IMG/VR virus record: IMGVR_UViG_3300017716_002032
Location: 1 to 42,381 of that record
Source: a virus
Lineage: Duplodnaviria; Caudoviricetes
DNA: 42,381 nucleotides
Direction: 5' to 3' (one strand)
In this document: one piece after another, positions 737 through 37,210 of the stretch
How positions within the stretch are numbered: the stretch's first letter is position 1
Layout: each line of letters starts with the position of its first letter
Program-made: the position numbers and the translations under genes
The notes under the pieces: model-generated
Databases searched by the model: none
What the model saw: the letters and a program-made list of their open reading frames with translations, nothing else
Told to the model about the DNA's origin: nothing

Positions 737-933
737 TTGACCGAGCAGAACACACCGATCACCGCCGCCACGCCGCGATGATGACTGACCACGGTTCATC
801 GCGTGGATGGGACTTCCGCCCCTCCGACGAGCCGCCGCTGTGGTTCCGTGCCGTGGCCGAGGTCCTGCGCCCGCGTAGCATCATCATCCTGCTGGCCCTC
901 GCTGGCGTTATCAGCCTCTTTTGGATTTCCTGA
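733..933 (+). CDS. Small protein with C-terminal transmembrane helix
   Basis: GGGAGAAG RBS, ATG 733; ends SIIILLALAGVISLFWIS. Confidence 0.65.
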   Translation: MIDRAEHTDHRRHAAMMTDHGSSRGWDFRPSDEPPLWFRAVAEVLRPRSIIILLALAGVISLFWIS

Positions 934-934
934 T

Positions 935-1600
935 ATGACCGACCTGATTATCCCCGACTGCACCTGCCCGGTCATCGCTGCCTTTATGGTCGCGTGGAAT
1001 GACGGGTTGCCGTCCGATGATGACCGCGTCCGCTTGTTTCTGCCGCTCATTCCGGTTCTGGCCGGGACGCGCGGGTCAAAGGCGCTTAAAACCCGCCGCG
1101 CCAACATGGCGACTGACTGGTATGTCCGGGTTCAGACGCCCGCATGGCTGCGGCTTGCCGGACTGACGACGCAAGCCGATACACTGGAAGCGTTCCCCGA
1201 GATTACTGACTTTTCCGCCGTGCCGTCGCTTAAGCCAACACTGGACGCCATCCGAAAAGACGCGGATGCGGCGTGGGCTGCGGTGGGGGCTGCGGCGGCG
1301 GTTGCGGCGGGGGCTGCGGCGTGGGCTGCGGTGGGGGCTGCGGCGTGGGCTGCGGCGTGGGATGCGGCGTGGGATGCGGCGGCGGCTGCGGCGGCGGCTG
1401 CGGCGGCGGCTGCGGTGGGGGCTGCGGCGGCGGTTGCGGCGATGGATGCGGCGTGGGCTGCGGCGGGGGATGCGGATGCGGCGAGGGCTGCGGCGTGGAA
1501 TGCGCTCGCTCCGACCGTCACCAGCCTACAGGACAGCGCCGTCGATCTTGTCAAGCGTATGTGCGCGCTGACTGACGAAGCCACAGGAGAAGCATCATGA
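935..1600 (+). CDS. Phage protein with Ala/Trp (AAW) low-complexity repeats
   Basis: Likely start ATG 935; CTCPVIAAFMVAWNDGLP motif then AAWAA/DAAW repeats typical of a common phage family. Confidence 0.75.
   Translation: MTDLIIPDCTCPVIAAFMVAWNDGLPSDDDRVRLFLPLIPVLAGTRGSKALKTRRANMATDWYVRVQTPAWLRLAGLTTQADTLEAFPEITDFSAVPSLKPTLDAIRKDADAAWAAVGAAAAVAAGAAAWAAVGAAAWAAAWDAAWDAAAAAAAAAAAAAVGAAAAVAAMDAAWAAAGDADAARAAAWNALAPTVTSLQDSAVDLVKRMCALTDEATGEAS
1262..1498 (+). repeat. Degenerate 9-12 bp tandem repeat (GCTGCGGCGTGG-like) encoding the Ala-rich tract
   Basis: Directly visible; produces repetitive shadow ORFs in other frames. Confidence 0.9.
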
Positions 1601-2168: not shown

Positions 2169-2923
2169 ACGAGAAACTGTCGCCTTGTCCGTTCTGTCAA
2201 AAGCCGCTGACCCTGGGTGGTGGCGTCAACCCTTATGGTCGGTGCGAGACGCCCGATTGCTGGCTGAATGAACGGCGCATTTCCATATCGCTTGATGTCC
2301 CGAAACAGCTTGAACAATGGAACCGCCGCACCCCTGCACCAGAGGGGGAGGCTTGGGGTTATGCGGTTCGGCGCATCCGTTTTGACAGCCACGATGCCGT
2401 CATCCCCGACGCGCCTTGGCGTCTGGAACGCGGCCTTGCGCTTCAAATGATCCGTGCTGATCCAGAGCGCTGGGAAGTCCAGCCCCTCTACGCCTCCCCT
2501 GTCGTTCCGGTAGGGAGCGGGCAGGCTGACAAAATGGCCCATGTTCTTCGCGGCATGGTGAAGCGCGGAACCTTGATCGACGACGAGGCGATTGAGAGCG
2601 CATTGACGCTGGCCACCTACAGGCAAGACCCGGACGACGATGACCGCGCATGGGCCGCGTCACAAGCAGAAGTCATCGGCCAGCCTGTCGTTCCGGTAGG
2701 GAGCGGGGAGCCGGTGGCGCGGGCTACCTGTCAAGATTGCGGTGGCCATATCGAGGGCTGGATTTGCCAATCGTGCGGCCGAGAGTTCCGGGAAAATGAC
2801 GCGGGCAATCTCGTCTTTGAGAACCAGCCTGTCGTTCCGGTAGGGGTGAGCAGGGAGGAGATCGTGCGGCTTCTCGACGCCATCATCGCAGCCCTTCGCC
2901 CTACCGATACAGGGGGGGAGTGA
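2165..2923 (+). CDS. Modular protein: Lar-like N-terminal CPFC zinc motif, three PVVPVG junctions, second zinc ribbon
   Basis: KLSPCPFC...C...C...WNRR pattern of the Lar restriction-alleviation family; CQDC..CQSC ribbon. Confidence 0.7.
   Translation: MNEKLSPCPFCQKPLTLGGGVNPYGRCETPDCWLNERRISISLDVPKQLEQWNRRTPAPEGEAWGYAVRRIRFDSHDAVIPDAPWRLERGLALQMIRADPERWEVQPLYASPVVPVGSGQADKMAHVLRGMVKRGTLIDDEAIESALTLATYRQDPDDDDRAWAASQAEVIGQPVVPVGSGEPVARATCQDCGGHIEGWICQSCGREFRENDAGNLVFENQPVVPVGVSREEIVRLLDAIIAALRPTDTGGE
2498..2845 (+). repeat. Three exact 18-bp in-frame direct repeats CCTGTCGTTCCGGTAGGG (2498, 2684, 2828)
   Basis: Spacing 186 and 144 bp, both multiples of 3. Confidence 0.92.
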
Positions 2924-3117
2924 TGAATCTCTACGACGACGAAAATGAGGATCTGCTGGACGCAATCGAGCAAGATGCTGAAGACGCAGCAATCCACGCA
3001 TGGGGGCCGCTTGCCGCTCCGACGCACCGGCCCTGCCCGCACCCAGAAGGGTCAGACGAAGCCGAGGCATGGTGGATAGCTTTTCACAGAGAATACGAAC
3101 GGGAGCACGGCAAATGA
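2920..3117 (+). CDS. Small acidic hypothetical protein
   Basis: Coupled ORF, Asp/Glu rich, CPHPEGS..AEAWW motif. Confidence 0.7.
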   Translation: MMNLYDDENEDLLDAIEQDAEDAAIHAWGPLAAPTHRPCPHPEGSDEAEAWWIAFHREYEREHGK

Positions 3118-3626
3118 TCACTCTATCAAACGAAACAGAAGCCCGTCTGCGGGCCGAGGTCGAGAGAAACACCGCGCCGTTCCGCACCCCTGACATAGCC
3201 GGTCTGTGCGAGAGGCTGCGGGCTGCGCTGGAAGGCACTACCGAAGCTCCGTGGTTTGCTGGCCCGCTCCAGCCCGAAGACGAATGGGGCGGACCCGGCG
3301 GCGTCTCCGTTGGGCCCTTTGACCTAGCGGAGCGGTATGGCAATCGACCCGACTATTCCCCGGACACGTTCAACAGTCATTACGAAAGTACGATTGCGGA
3401 GGTTTCCGGCTGTAACCACGACGCGGAAAGAAACGGGGCCTTCATCGCCCTGTCCCGCGAGGCCGTCCCCGCGCTTCTCGACACCCTTGAACGCCAAGCC
3501 GCTGAGATAGAGAGGCTGCAAAATCTGCTCAACGGCAGGGATGACTTCATCGTGGGCGAGGGGCTGTGGCCGAAGTTCTGCGACGGCTTGCCGCCCCGAG
3601 CCGCCCTTACAGGAGAAGACACATGA
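3114..3626 (+). CDS. Ead/Ea22-like phage protein
   Basis: Start ATG 3114; TEAPW...NGAFIALSREAVPALLDTLE matches the Ead/Ea22 pattern. Confidence 0.7.
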   Translation: MITLSNETEARLRAEVERNTAPFRTPDIAGLCERLRAALEGTTEAPWFAGPLQPEDEWGGPGGVSVGPFDLAERYGNRPDYSPDTFNSHYESTIAEVSGCNHDAERNGAFIALSREAVPALLDTLERQAAEIERLQNLLNGRDDFIVGEGLWPKFCDGLPPRAALTGEDT

Positions 3627-3787
3627 CCACGGATGAAAAGCTCGCCGTCATCGCTCGCGCTATTTTGGAGATCGAACAGAAAGCCGTGCGAACATGGGAT
3701 AACGACGGCGAGGACGCATACGGGGCCGGGTTGTTTCTGACCAGAAACCTCACCCAAAAACTAGAGGAGATGGCCGACCATGACTGA
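3623..3787 (+). CDS. Small hypothetical protein
   Basis: AGGAG RBS, ATG 3623, MTTDEKLAV... Confidence 0.65.
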   Translation: MTTDEKLAVIARAILEIEQKAVRTWDNDGEDAYGAGLFLTRNLTQKLEEMADHD

Positions 3788-3869
3788 CATCCTTTTGGCG
3801 ATATGGGAGATGACATACCCAGCCGGGCCGCCGGGAAAAACGCAAAGAAAACGTAGAGGCGGGAAGCGG

Positions 3870-3898
3870 TTGACGTTTCGATGCAACGGCGCCTATCT
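3870..3898 (+). promoter_or_regulatory. Promoter for the passenger wHTH gene / tRNA-like RNA
   Basis: TTGACG-17-CTATCT; imperfect palindrome CGTTTCGATGCAACG in the spacer. Confidence 0.5.
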
Positions 3899-3931
3899 AC
3901 GTGCCTGTCTCCAAAACGTGATTCCCCCGAC

Positions 3932-4372
3932 ATGTCTGACGCGCTTACCGACCTGAGCCAAATGATCGAACGCATCCGAAGGGAAGCGCTCGCGGAAGGT
4001 CATGCCGCAGGTTACGCACTGGCGATGGCCAAGGTCGCGGCCTTCGCCATGGATGAGCGGCCAGAACCAGAGTGGGCGAAGCCGAAGGCGGCACCACAAG
4101 AGGCCGCGAGGGCTCCGCGCGGCAAGAACCGAGACCTTGTTCTTGGTGCGATGGCGAGCCTGCAAGGCGCAACCAGCGTCAAGACGATTCAGGACCATCT
4201 AGAAGATCAGGGCCACAGCATTCCCTATTCCAGCATCCAAGCCGTCATGGCGCAGCTGACCCGCGACGAAATCGTTGAAATGGTCGGGCGCGGCGAGTGG
4301 CGGCTGAAAACGAACACGGCCTCCGATGCCGAAGCAAGGGAGGCCGCGCTGAACGCCGGAGCGTTCGACTAG
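3932..4372 (+). CDS. Passenger protein: N-terminal helical region, linker, C-terminal winged helix
   Basis: NRDLVLGAM..ATSVKTIQDHL...YSSIQAVMAQLTRDEIVEMVGRGEWRL is a wHTH pattern; start ATG 3932 lies after the promoter. Confidence 0.75.
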   Translation: MSDALTDLSQMIERIRREALAEGHAAGYALAMAKVAAFAMDERPEPEWAKPKAAPQEAARAPRGKNRDLVLGAMASLQGATSVKTIQDHLEDQGHSIPYSSIQAVMAQLTRDEIVEMVGRGEWRLKTNTASDAEAREAALNAGAFD

Positions 4373-4375
4373 TCT

Positions 4376-4447
4376 GGGGCCGGAGGGCTGGTGCCCAGGA
4401 ACACTTTGCAACGTCTCCCCTGGGGTTCGATTCCCCCCGGTTCCACC
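4376..4447 (+). tRNA. Non-canonical tRNA-Ala(UGC)-like RNA with 8-bp acceptor / 4-bp T stem
   Basis: GGGGCCGG/CCGGTTCC acceptor with G3:U70, A discriminator then CC; D arm GGGC-TGGT-GCCC; loop TTTGCAA; GGGG-TTCGATT-CCCC T arm; anticodon stem imperfect. Confidence 0.6.
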
Positions 4448-4570
4448 TTCATTCCGTCGTCGGGTCAGCCTCTGAAAAGTCAGGCCCGGTCGCCGGTTCA
4501 CCCACCCAACTGGGGCCAAAGGCCCTGCTAGGAGCATCCCATGTGGCAAGCCGCCAGATTAGGATGACTA

Positions 4571-4599
4571 ATTGTCCCCTTTAGGGGACTCGCTGTCAA
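4571..4599 (-). promoter_or_regulatory. Convergent antisense sigma70 promoter with palindromic operator
   Basis: Minus strand TTGACA-17-GACAAT; GTCCCC-TTTA-GGGGAC at 4574-4589 spans the spacer and -10. Confidence 0.6.
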
Positions 4600-4601
4600 G
4601 G

Positions 4602-4635
4602 GAAGGCTCTGGCCGGTCGGTCAGGGCCTTCTTTT
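4602..4635 (+). terminator. Intrinsic terminator
   Basis: GAAGGCTCTGGCC-GGTC-GGTCAGGGCCTTC-TTTT. Confidence 0.75.
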
Positions 4636-4779
4636 GCCTTTCATCGGCTTAATGCTGCGGCTAACGACGCCATCAGCGGCGCAAAACGGGCAAACAGGAC
4701 CCTCTGGCCAAACGCGCGCTTCGACGTAAGCGAAGGCGGCGGCTTCGGAATGGAAATGTTTGGCGGACAGGTTGGACAC
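4621..4779 (-). pseudogene. Truncated IS1595-family transposase (N-terminal zinc-ribbon part only, 52 aa)
   Basis: AAGGA RBS, GTG; MSNLSAKHFHSEAAAFAYVEARVWPEGPVCPFC...KPMKGKRRP*; WPxGPVCPxC is the IS1595 Zn-ribbon signature; no DDE domain. Confidence 0.85.
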
Positions 4780-4913
4780 AGCGATTTTCCTTGCCGTGTC
4801 TACATTAGCGGGCCGCTAGGGTATGTCAAGTCACATATCGCCATCCTTTTAGCCGGGTTCTTTACCGCCGTAGCCGTGTTTTGTCAGTTGTGGATTCGGG
4901 AGGACCAGAGGCG

Positions 4914-5189
4914 TTAGAAGGGCCACCACCACACGCGGTTTTGACTTTCTGCGATAGCGACGATTGCCTCGCGCTTTACGTCACAAACGCGGAGGTCACC
5001 ATCTTGAGCGACTATTGCACGGCCTAGATCGCCAACGGTCTGTGCCGTGCTTACGTCCACAGTTGAGACGCAAGGGGATTTCAGGCTTTCCGGGATGACG
5101 ACGTTAGCCGCCCCTCCGCACCCGCTCAAGCTCGCTAGCGAAACCAGCAGGAAGGGGAGTATCAGCGCCTTGGATTTGTTCGACTTCAC
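4914..5189 (-). CDS. Outer-membrane spanin (Rz1-like lipoprotein)
   Basis: Signal peptide with lipobox LSGC, overlaps the i-spanin. Confidence 0.8.
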   Translation of the reverse strand: MKSNKSKALILPFLLVSLASLSGCGGAANVVIPESLKSPCVSTVDVSTAQTVGDLGRAIVAQDGDLRVCDVKREAIVAIAESQNRVWWWPF

Positions 5190-5403
5190 GTTGCTTGTCC
5201 TCTTGATCTTGTCGGATGACAGGGGTTTCCGCTGCGACCCGGTCTAACTGTTTTGCGACGGCTGTAGCGACCTTGGCTTCATTCTTTGCAGACGGCTTGT
5301 TAAGCATGGTGAATACGGCGAGCGCGAATAGCAGGACGACGACGAGCGCGCCAATCTGGACGATGCGGGTTGCGGTGCGGTCTAAACCAAACATGGGTTG
5401 CAT
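5104..5403 (-). CDS. Inner-membrane spanin (Rz-like)
   Basis: N-terminal TM helix then coiled coil, downstream of endolysin. Confidence 0.75.
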   Translation of the reverse strand: MQPMFGLDRTATRIVQIGALVVVLLFALAVFTMLNKPSAKNEAKVATAVAKQLDRVAAETPVIRQDQEDKQREVEQIQGADTPLPAGFASELERVRRGG

Positions 5404-5523
5404 CCTATTCGTTTTCAGGCATTATGGCTAGGCGAGATGCCTAATCGCGTGAAGGCGCATATGCCTAACGCTTCCGCTGCCACCACAGCGGTTCTGGTGG
5501 GAATAGGGCGCTCGCTTCACCCC

Positions 5524-6132
5524 TTATTTAGCCCAATGCCCGGTTTTGCGGTGAAGCCAAGTCAGGAAGTCGCCGACCGTCTTTCCGCCGCCGAGGATTG
5601 ACGGATTAGCCGCAATCGCCGCACTCCCTACATGAGCGTCAATCCGGTCTGTGTGGTCGCCCTCAAGCGCCTTGATAGCCGTTCCTGCGCCGAGGAAATG
5701 CGCGGCATACAGAGAGGCGTTGTTAACCGGGATTCCGGCCTTCCTCAGCGCCAACACGTTCTTTTCGGTAAACGTGCGCGCCCGCTGCAACTGTTCAGCC
5801 TCTGACGGCGTAAAACCGCCAAACGCGGCAGACATATCAGGCCCCCACTTGCCGCCCTCTGCTTGCCATGTGGACTTGATGAACTGATACAGGCCCGAGG
5901 CGCTAGATGTCGTCGCCTTGATATATGGACGGTTCCCGCTTTCGATCTTCGCCAGCATTGGCCAATAATCGTTTGGGATGGTCGAATCCGTCACAACGCG
6001 CTCTGCCACCTTTTCGGGCAGATACTTGTCCAGCGCGGCGTTGGTCGCCGGACCCGCCTCGCCGTCTTCTTTCAAGCCCGCGCCGTATTGATTGAGGCGG
6101 TGTTGAACTCGCAGAACGAACGGTTTACTCAC
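5524..6132 (-). CDS. Endolysin: peptidoglycan-binding domain plus lytic transglycosylase
   Basis: LKEDGEAGPATNAAL PG-binding motif; IESG...SSASGLYQF...TW SLT motif. Confidence 0.9.
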   Translation of the reverse strand: MSKPFVLRVQHRLNQYGAGLKEDGEAGPATNAALDKYLPEKVAERVVTDSTIPNDYWPMLAKIESGNRPYIKATTSSASGLYQFIKSTWQAEGGKWGPDMSAAFGGFTPSEAEQLQRARTFTEKNVLALRKAGIPVNNASLYAAHFLGAGTAIKALEGDHTDRIDAHVGSAAIAANPSILGGGKTVGDFLTWLHRKTGHWAK

Positions 6133-36378: not shown

Positions 36379-36460
36379 ATAAAACACGGCACCGGGGAGA
36401 GCGTCAAGCGATATTTGTTAAACATTGCGTTTGACAGGCGCGCCGCTTTCGGCCTTTATG
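36379..36460. promoter_or_regulatory. Divergent early promoters with shared inverted repeat
   Basis: Leftward TTGACG (36402-36407)-17-TTTTAT; rightward TTGACA at 36431; TGTTAAAC-N5-GTTTGACA at 36416-36436. Confidence 0.6.
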
Positions 36461-36493
36461 TCGGCAGCGGGATTGGCCCGCGTGGAGAACATC

Positions 36494-37210
36494 ATGGCGA
36501 TGCCAACTCATACCATCACCGCCGATCAAATTACAGACGGCCTTTATACCGGGTCTGTAGATGTGACGGATTATGCCGGTCACATTGTGATTGCAGAGAA
36601 CTTGGGAACCGTGCGGTTTTCGGGCTATGTCCGCGCCAAAGGCCGCGTGGAGGCAAAGGCAGGCAGCAGCATCTCCGCAGGCGACGGCATCTCCGCAGGC
36701 AGCAGCATCTCCGCAGGCTGGGGCATCTCCGCAGGCTACGGCATCTCCGCAGGCAGCAGCATCTCCGCAGGCTGGGGCATCTCCGCAGGCTGGGGCATCT
36801 CCGCAGGCGACGGCATCTCCGCAGGCCACGGCATCTCCGCAGGCCGCAGCATCTCCGCAGGCGACGGCATCTCCGCAGGCAGCAGCATCTCCGCAGGCGA
36901 CGGCATCTCCGCAGGCAGCAGCATCTCCGCAGGCTGGGGCATCTCCGCAGGCTACGGCATCTCCGCAGGCTGGGGCATCAAGGCCAAATGGGTTGACGTT
37001 GCCCTCCGCATTTTCGTCGGCTTGTGTCTCTGGCGTGAGCCGGAAGGCGAAGAGCGCCAACTTCGCGCCGAACTGCACCGTGGCGTTCTGGCGTTTGGCG
37101 AACACGTCCCTCCCGTTGTCGAGGAAGCGTCCGCACCCTTGGCCGACGAAATCGAGCCGCTGACCGCTTGTGAGATTGCCCGCGTCCGGGAACTTATCGC
37201 TAGTGCCTAA
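36494..37210 (+). CDS. Hexapeptide-repeat (ISAGxx) beta-solenoid protein
   Basis: GGAG RBS, ATG 36494; 17 ISAGxx units. Confidence 0.82.
   Translation: MAMPTHTITADQITDGLYTGSVDVTDYAGHIVIAENLGTVRFSGYVRAKGRVEAKAGSSISAGDGISAGSSISAGWGISAGYGISAGSSISAGWGISAGWGISAGDGISAGHGISAGRSISAGDGISAGSSISAGDGISAGSSISAGWGISAGYGISAGWGIKAKWVDVALRIFVGLCLWREPEGEERQLRAELHRGVLAFGEHVPPVVEEASAPLADEIEPLTACEIARVRELIASA
36671..36976 (+). repeat. 17 x 18-bp tandem repeat, invariant ATCTCCGCAGGC plus variable 6 nt
   Basis: Directly visible. Confidence 0.97.

Follow-up and report, generated by a model that had tools for sequence, protein, structure and literature searches.

A transposase-deleted IS1595 element in a small phage gene

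The stretch of DNA analysed, referred to below as the window, comprises 42,381 nucleotides and is a complete virus record with direct terminal repeats. It encodes a terminase large subunit and, at positions 4914-5189, an Rz1-like lysis gene. The segment at 3797-4842, located past the 3' end of a rightward block of genes and ahead of the convergent lysis genes, was shown to be a passenger-carrying element of the IS1595 family, deleted for its transposase and inserted in a small phage gene. Its cargo comprises a gene for a 146-aa protein, a tRNA-like gene and a run of hairpins. A homologue of the cargo protein in Brevundimonas sp. (71% identity) is the sole hint of a host. Elsewhere in the window, short repeated junctions separate small early genes at 2680-3630, and contigs of related phages omit or exchange genes between them, as in a modular gene-shuffling region. 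Low-complexity ORFs with AAWAA-type and GISAG-type pentapeptide-like repeats are located at 845-1600 (+) and 36425-37210 (+).

As described in the initial annotation, the element is bounded by 24-bp terminal inverted repeats that match at 21 of 24 positions (3797-3820 at the end distal to the transposase, 4819-4842 at the transposase end). They are the longest among 161 inverted pairs in region 3300-5400 (36 nt at 81%), and the repeat at the transposase end shares 18 of 24 positions with a majority sequence derived from 57 related elements. The exact 8-bp target-site duplication, ATCCTTTT, was likewise recovered at 3789-3796 and 4843-4850, and these are its only two copies in the 42-kb window. 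Exact 8-bp duplications were found in 53 of 57 complete relatives, with a scoring scheme that favoured 8-bp matches. When the flanks were joined in silico, an open 27-codon phage ORF resulted, the 5' part of which lies at 3780-3796 (+) and the 3' part at 4851-4917 (+).

Contigs from public sequencing runs (X1-X4) were aligned to window positions 2800-5800 at 85% likeness. Those from X1 had the same form as the window and, as a possible source sample, were left out of the count of empty sites. In three of the four runs (X2, X3 and X4, from two studies) related phages carried the empty site that the annotation had called for: position 3627 is joined to 4842 with three letters between, which spells exactly the predicted empty site and establishes a discrete insertion. 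These phages also lack the gene at 3623-3787. DNA of the region gave no match to annotated phages and plasmids. The terminal-repeat pattern matched nothing in viral contigs and eight places in genomes, none with a partner repeat (best 13-15 of 24), and five phages related by their endolysin all lacked the region.

The remnant of the transposase is encoded at 4621-4779 (-). It matches the Pfam family Zn_ribbon_IS1595 (PF12760) above cut-off (E 2.4e-8), as anticipated, and is 60% identical to annotated IS1595 transposases; the catalytic DDE domain is absent. The subgroup of the element may be ISNwi1. Of the 52 residues originally assigned to the transposase N-terminus, 49 are native codons, and the last three derive from a deletion join at 4632-4637, where six bases are common to both sides and approximately 954 bases of the parent are missing. 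Contig 13 of run X2 (2083 bases) matches 3793-4637 and 4632-4842 and has record bases 240-1193 (954 bases) in between. It differs from the window at 36 of about 1056 bases and its ends do not match the phage flanks; a copy of about 2.0 kb thus exists at a site other than the phage locus. Since this contig carries the 954 bases, the phage copy can be regarded as a non-autonomous deletion derivative that lost them between two 6-base repeats, in line with the initial annotation. The size of the parent falls within the span of 56 relatives (1.85-4.3 kb). As the transposases of related elements are about 300-320 aa long and mostly have an ORF of about 50 aa behind them, the missing bases probably held a full transposase and such an ORF. 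In most related IS1595 elements the small ORF contains a motif like DKFREAARELETDD, and it would fall in the part deleted from the window. The persistence of the cargo after the deletion had been read as a sign of selection; a single event of this kind, in one phage, is not sufficient to demonstrate it.

The winged-helix gene and the tRNA-like gene

The gene at 3932-4372 (+) encodes a 146-aa protein of an unnamed family, for which five homologues were collected by a word-based search and 70 by a profile search (E<=1e-3). A structure model built from a 53-row alignment (pLDDT 86.8) places a linker between a long N-terminal helix (residues 2-41) and a winged helix (65-125), which bears out the earlier assignment of the gene. 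A Foldseek search with this model returned nothing at E<=0.001, and its top rows consisted of generic winged-helix folds (e.g. Rok, BlaI-like, Fur, Z-alpha). The predicted winged helix can be superposed on Z-alpha domains (1.2-1.3 A, 60 columns), as may be true of any small winged helix. Matches to Pfam were all sub-threshold, those in the ESM Atlas were all below 0.9 and unnamed, and the protein gave no match in NCBIfam or PHROGs. PADLOC did not match it or the proteins of the related loci L097, L106 and L055 described below, and no toxin protein was recognised in the cargo with Pfam, PADLOC, NCBIfam and PHROGs. Proteins of the window, L097 and L106 had no counterpart among annotated phages and plasmids, and no relative of the window protein was found in viral, genome and metagenome contigs apart from the record of the window itself. 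The phage-type protein P0005 ends with about 40 residues of the cargo protein (88%), which suggests that a phage gene was joined to the terminal part of this cargo by another deletion.

The last 20 residues of the protein overlie a DNA hairpin that had escaped the first reading. An A-run followed by this GC-rich hairpin (4307-4346, with the hairpin proper at 4317-4346) resembles a terminator on the - strand and is predicted to end - strand transcripts; the corresponding scanner call (4335-4319) is at chance level by itself. A hairpin occupies the equivalent position at the gene end in L055, L109, L129, L097, L150, L163 and L196. The KTNT tail that opens the hairpin-coding stretch is present in seven of ten homologues of alignment A8, which suggests that the hairpin is kept among homologues, as judged from the protein.

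Three nucleotides past the stop codon begins a 73-nt tRNA-like gene (4376-4448, +), where the initial annotation had placed it. The acceptor is of the alanine type, with G3.U70 and A73, and its eight base pairs are combined with a 4-bp T stem (TTCGATT loop). The D arm is a 4-bp hairpin with a 4-nt loop, and the anticodon arm is irregular, with a broken stem around TTTGCAA. Of the canonical marks of tRNA-Ala, G3.U70, A73 and the UGC loop are present; a 5-bp anticodon stem with a 7-nt loop, a full D loop and a CCA end (here CCT) are not. A73 counts among the alanine identity marks. G3.U70 is the mark for AlaRS (PMC7609411). The cloverleaf is predicted at -29.0 to -29.7 kcal/mol, 1.7-2.4 kcal/mol above the best fold (-31.4 kcal/mol), and the folding energy of the RNA alone is not unusual (z -0.5). 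The Rfam tmRNA model scores the RNA at 25 bits (E 1e-7), under its gathering score of 47. ARAGORN made no call at 4376-4448 and gave noise at a lowered threshold. An acceptor plus T-arm pattern matched 11 viral sequences, eight of them ordinary tRNA-Ala genes, and a narrower pattern none; no RNA data set appeared among the public runs listed. Phage tRNA-like genes with an alanine acceptor and without an ARAGORN call were noted at L013:2499-2582 (-), where the gene stands alone between two protein genes, L018:813-888 (-) and L019:1785-1860.

The low Rfam score, the missing ARAGORN call and the CCT end would all be expected of a worn passenger, that is, a captured tRNA beside a small regulator that has become a decaying pseudogene in the window, the derivative persisting by drift in a dispensable gene. 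Related phages manage without the element, and the RNAs of L109 and L055 form a series from near-canonical to degenerate, which also fits. We nevertheless consider this improbable, given the compensatory changes across six related RNAs, the occurrence of the same layout in different transposon families and the conservation of a stop-reading anticodon beside proteins that are just 26-71% identical (see below).

Signals for transcription are unevenly supported. For the + strand promoter of the cargo, the initial annotation was not upheld: the scanner called no + strand promoter, and the uncertain candidate at 3870-3899 (+), seen in the sequence, consists of TTGACG at 3870 with a weak -10 box. 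The 6/7 inverted repeat around it is, by estimate, at chance level, and no convincing operator was found in the element. The convergent sigma70-type promoter fared better, being called by the scanner at 4571-4599 (-) with 10 of 12 matches (one found against 0.3 expected). Transcription from it would run across the tRNA-like gene and end at the 4307-4346 hairpin. Downstream of the RNA, a run of hairpins at 4454-4590 (+; fold z -1.95) had no clear match among 120 related loci (best blastn E 0.027). It includes an 8-codon ORF, MWQAARLG (4541-4567, +), preceded by AGGAG (4530-4567 together), and a hairpin around this ORF may hide the ribosome site. The further hairpins annotated before were corroborated, as 4500-4645 folds better than all of 200 shuffles (z -3.8). 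A long hairpin with a T-run at 4597-4636 (+; inverted repeat I7, fold) is the likely terminator of the cargo transcript; the scanner made no terminator call there.

The convergent promoter, the hairpins and a tRNA-like shape that RNase P could process are also compatible with an antisense-type regulator, in which the loop of the tRNA-shaped RNA would pair with the leader of its own operon in the manner of c4 and CI RNAs, the antisense RNAs of phages P1 and P4. This appears very unlikely: the element contains no complement of at least 7 nt to the anticodon loop, Rfam C4 or similar families were not matched at E<=10, and such a regulator would have no use for amino-acid identity marks.

Winged-helix genes and aberrant tRNAs on related transposons

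Related loci were gathered by transposase alone, from plasmid and genome matches and the best 80 of 245 viral matches. After earlier short or duplicate loci had been left out, 120 were analysed, 115 of them distinct and 56 with both ends. A detector for acceptor stem plus T arm was run over the passenger regions; in an earlier version, the RNA at 4376 had been its only match in the window. It reported a tRNA-like gene in 11 of 115 loci (nine complete, two open-ended) and in none of 50 shuffles per complete element. RNA models added L150, L163 and L179, which brings the loci with an aberrant tRNA to 14 of 115. A profile of the window protein family matched seven of 1467 passenger ORFs, and all seven, from two lineages, adjoin a tRNA-like gene; the predicted recurrence of the pair on IS1595 elements was thus observed. 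As six of the seven represent one lineage, the hypergeometric value of 1e-8 is overstated by kinship, and about four independent cases can be counted for this protein family, the window included.

The closest arrangement was found in L097, the protein of which is a full-length homologue (probability 97.6%). As in the window, gene, hairpin and RNA follow each other antisense to the transposase; the RNA has a UGG loop in what we assume to be a leucine-type body. The large lineage comprises L085, L098, L100, L106, L162, L176 and L179, IS1595 elements from genomes and viral contigs in which an intact leucine-type tRNA with the ochre-reading anticodon UUA is located just upstream of a small winged-helix gene. 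ARAGORN labels the tRNA of L085 'tRNA-Stop'; an ORF of about 38 aa lies downstream in that locus. A profile of six long-type proteins detected one new ORF among the 1467, that of L179, with a UUA tRNA upstream. L055, L109 and L129 form a second protein family with the order gene, hairpin, short RNA, and L150 is organised likewise. A relation between the L055 and window proteins was not detectable (probability 0.3%), and by our own reading of the sequences the proteins of L055, L109, L129 and L150 are probably winged-helix proteins too.

The stop-reading tRNAs raise the possibility that a suppressor tRNA permits read-through of an interrupted transposase gene and thereby controls transposition. 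Seven elements carry such leucine-type UUA tRNAs, but in-frame stops are absent from the transposase genes of all 11 tRNA-bearing elements that were checked, and the elements with a mid-gene TAA (L076, L099) lack a tRNA. This explanation was ruled out.

Anticodons are often at odds with the tRNA body in the family: a leucine-type body is combined with UUA in seven loci and with UGG in L097, and an alanine acceptor with UCC (L192), ACC (L129) or UCU (L196), where the loop registers of the short RNAs are our own reading. Covariation among the six short RNAs extends to 12 of 20 pairs, a value reached in none of 500 shuffles and not in slid controls; relatedness of the RNAs and their selection via a tRNA-shaped model inflate this figure. 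G3.U70 and A73 are kept in five of the six, although the set is biased towards G3.U70, since a model derived from the window RNA served in part to assemble it.

A model built from the six short RNAs was run on 141 genomes, with 35 candidates scored per genome, so that misses are likely. The best match, in L196, scored 66 bits, followed by one of 43.6 and others of 34-41 bits; three of four lower matches checked were ordinary tRNAs. The L196 RNA follows a gene whose 159-aa product is recognised by the family profile (E 9e-6; 34% identity to the window protein over 41 aa). The locus (L196:1034-1655) has the gene-end hairpin and a short RNA with G3.U70 and a UCU loop; farther downstream come a second odd tRNA, the anticodon loop of which has 8 nt, and then an IS1 transposase split over two frames. 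A search for terminal repeats at L196 returned none. Conversely, a profile search of 251 genomes with the protein family returned 13 places in 12 genomes, among which L063 is listed. Up to 1.5 kb from this homologue (profile E 2e-8) there is no T-loop; the other matches listed are presumably Fur/BlaI-type or other regulators.

The expectation that homologues would always be followed by the RNA and lie in IS1595 elements held for the recurrent pairing but failed for L063, which lacks the RNA, and for L196, which adjoins IS1. Other departures include homologues of the L055 protein outside transposons (0 of 3 with the RNA), L057, with a related domain and no RNA, L192, where the RNA has no winged-helix gene, and L163, where it follows an unrelated 357-aa gene. 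The pairing of winged-helix protein and aberrant tRNA is real and beyond chance; it is neither obligate nor confined to IS1595. L076, L143, L189, L170, L197 and L198 were examined and are not counted as members. At L198:1501-1589 lies an 89-nt tRNA-like gene of unusual form, which has a loop reading UAU and a long extra arm and is not called by ARAGORN. A winged-helix neighbour was not found in this locus, and the RNA resembles the allo-tRNA-UAU group as presented in the sections of Mukai 2017 (PMC5389517) drawn on here.

Retention of the acceptor and T arms while the D and anticodon arms decay is what a decoy or sensor would display, that is, a tRNA mimic acting off the ribosome that soaks up or reports anticodon nucleases or tRNA-modifying toxins, or that is itself the ligand of the winged-helix protein. 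On a phage it would serve counter-defence. The Z-alpha overlay mentioned above agrees with this, with the reservation that any small winged helix may give it, as does the account of irregular tRNAs that are charged yet unused in translation in the part of Mukai 2017 (PMC5389517) consulted. Still, we judge a decoy to be rather unlikely: in seven loci the long type retains UUA as its anticodon within an intact cloverleaf, which fits decoding better, and the parent element is bacterial transposon cargo, not part of a phage gene set.

A proposed tRNA poison and its relation to known systems

Our tentative interpretation, to which we assign somewhat less than an even chance, is that the cargo is an autorepressed operon whose aberrant tRNA acts as a conditional translation poison. 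The protein gene and the RNA would be co-transcribed and the RNA excised by ordinary tRNA-processing enzymes. It would then be charged by a synthetase blind to the anticodon, namely AlaRS through G3.U70 in the window type and LeuRS, which does not read the anticodon, in the long type. Once charged, it may misread, shift frame or stall, a step suggested by anticodons that, within the family, contradict the acceptor or are placed in 8-nt loops; an 8-nt anticodon loop is a mark of +1 frameshift suppressors. The winged-helix protein would repress the operon, in the window perhaps aided by an antisense RNA, for which the promoter at 4571-4599 (-) is suitably placed. The A-run and hairpin at the gene end would halt opposite-strand transcripts past the RNA and before the gene, as fits antisense control. 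Loss or shut-off of the protein would free the RNA and lead to addiction or abortive infection.

A mis-decoding charged tRNA under repression is the simplest single account of the acceptor marks, the anticodons and the winged-helix gene. Misreading is least well supported for the window RNA, whose UGC loop is the one expected for alanine. With its cognate loop, broken stem and CCT end it may be a poor ribosome substrate, and it fits a decoy or a worn-out passenger about as well. A wider proposition, which we regard as doubtful, is that an undescribed tRNA-toxin module of anti-phage or toxin-antitoxin function travels on insertion sequences from two or more families. Its tRNA, charged by a synthetase blind to the anticodon, would misread, shift frame or read through stops unless silenced by the winged-helix protein, and phages would acquire the module and strip it of its transposase.

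With 14 of 115 loci, roughly every eighth of the related elements has an aberrant tRNA, mostly adjoining a small winged-helix gene. Such tRNAs are probably largely unannotated, since tRNA finders miss many of them (e.g. in the window and L055). If they are charged and ribosome-bound, transposons move natural missense, frameshift and ochre suppressors among bacteria and phages under a dedicated regulator, which would be a source of compact natural suppressor tRNAs. It would also offer a testable explanation of why irregular tRNAs adjoin mobile or toxin-antitoxin genes, a question left open in the portion of Mukai 2017 (PMC5389517) available to this comparison.

The vehicle is of a known kind. 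Like the transporter elements (tIS) of the IS1595 family, it has a zinc-ribbon transposase start, terminal repeats of about 24 bp and an 8-bp duplication, and passengers lie between the transposase and the far end; it differs in that the catalytic part is deleted and the cargo includes a tRNA-like gene. The passengers of tIS named in the relevant part of PMC11891212 (citing Siguier et al. 2009) are regulators, methyltransferases and resistance genes. With the tRNA-like domain of tmRNA (RF00023) the window RNA shares the alanine acceptor, the T arm and a reduced D arm, but it has no mRNA-like domain or tag frame, and its 25 bits fall short of the gathering score (47). Modules of a DUF3800 protein and a non-coding RNA are likewise protein plus RNA cargo on the same transposon group; there, however, the protein is another one and the RNA is not tRNA-like. 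L054 scored 39.8 bits with the Rfam model DUF3800-VIII (cut-off 40.2). DUF3800-like passengers are, we assume, common on related elements (L054, L080, L082, L083, L089), and PIN- and NYN-like passengers presumably recur as well.

Toxin-antitoxin systems of types I, III and VIII have RNA components. They resemble the present cargo in being two-part modules on mobile DNA, with a possible antisense RNA or autorepressor. Here, no toxin protein is recognised and the proposed toxin is the tRNA-like RNA itself; the comparative data favour the reading in which the aberrant tRNA is the active component over that of an RNA antitoxin. In the literature searched, with subscription journals and the supplementary loci figures of PMC5389517 outside its scope, a winged-helix plus aberrant-tRNA cargo on IS1595 or other insertion sequences was not found, and the module is new to this literature.

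The nearest known RNAs are the allo-tRNAs, as far as they are covered in the excerpts of Mukai 2017 (PMC5389517) and PMC7609411 used here. Allo-tRNAs are marked by an acceptor branch of 8/4 or 9/3 type. An 8/4 branch and a D tetraloop are shared by the window RNA; in it the 8/4 branch has a G8-C65 pair and a T.C mismatch at the fifth T-stem pair. In these excerpts, some allo-tRNAs also have G3.U70, their anticodons are at odds with identity, and irregular tRNAs occur near toxin-antitoxin and transposon genes; two of six irregular tRNA variants tested killed E. coli (Mukai 2017, PMC5389517). In contrast to the allo-tRNAs so described, which are shaped like tRNA-Sec, the short RNAs lack a long variable arm (0-3 nt in the window), have A73 instead of G73 or U73 and measure 71-73 nt, and the other five fold 7/5, unlike the 8/4 form of the window. 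Within the same limits of the sources, the RNAs reported here differ further in being tied to winged-helix genes in bounded insertion sequences of alphaproteobacteria and phages.
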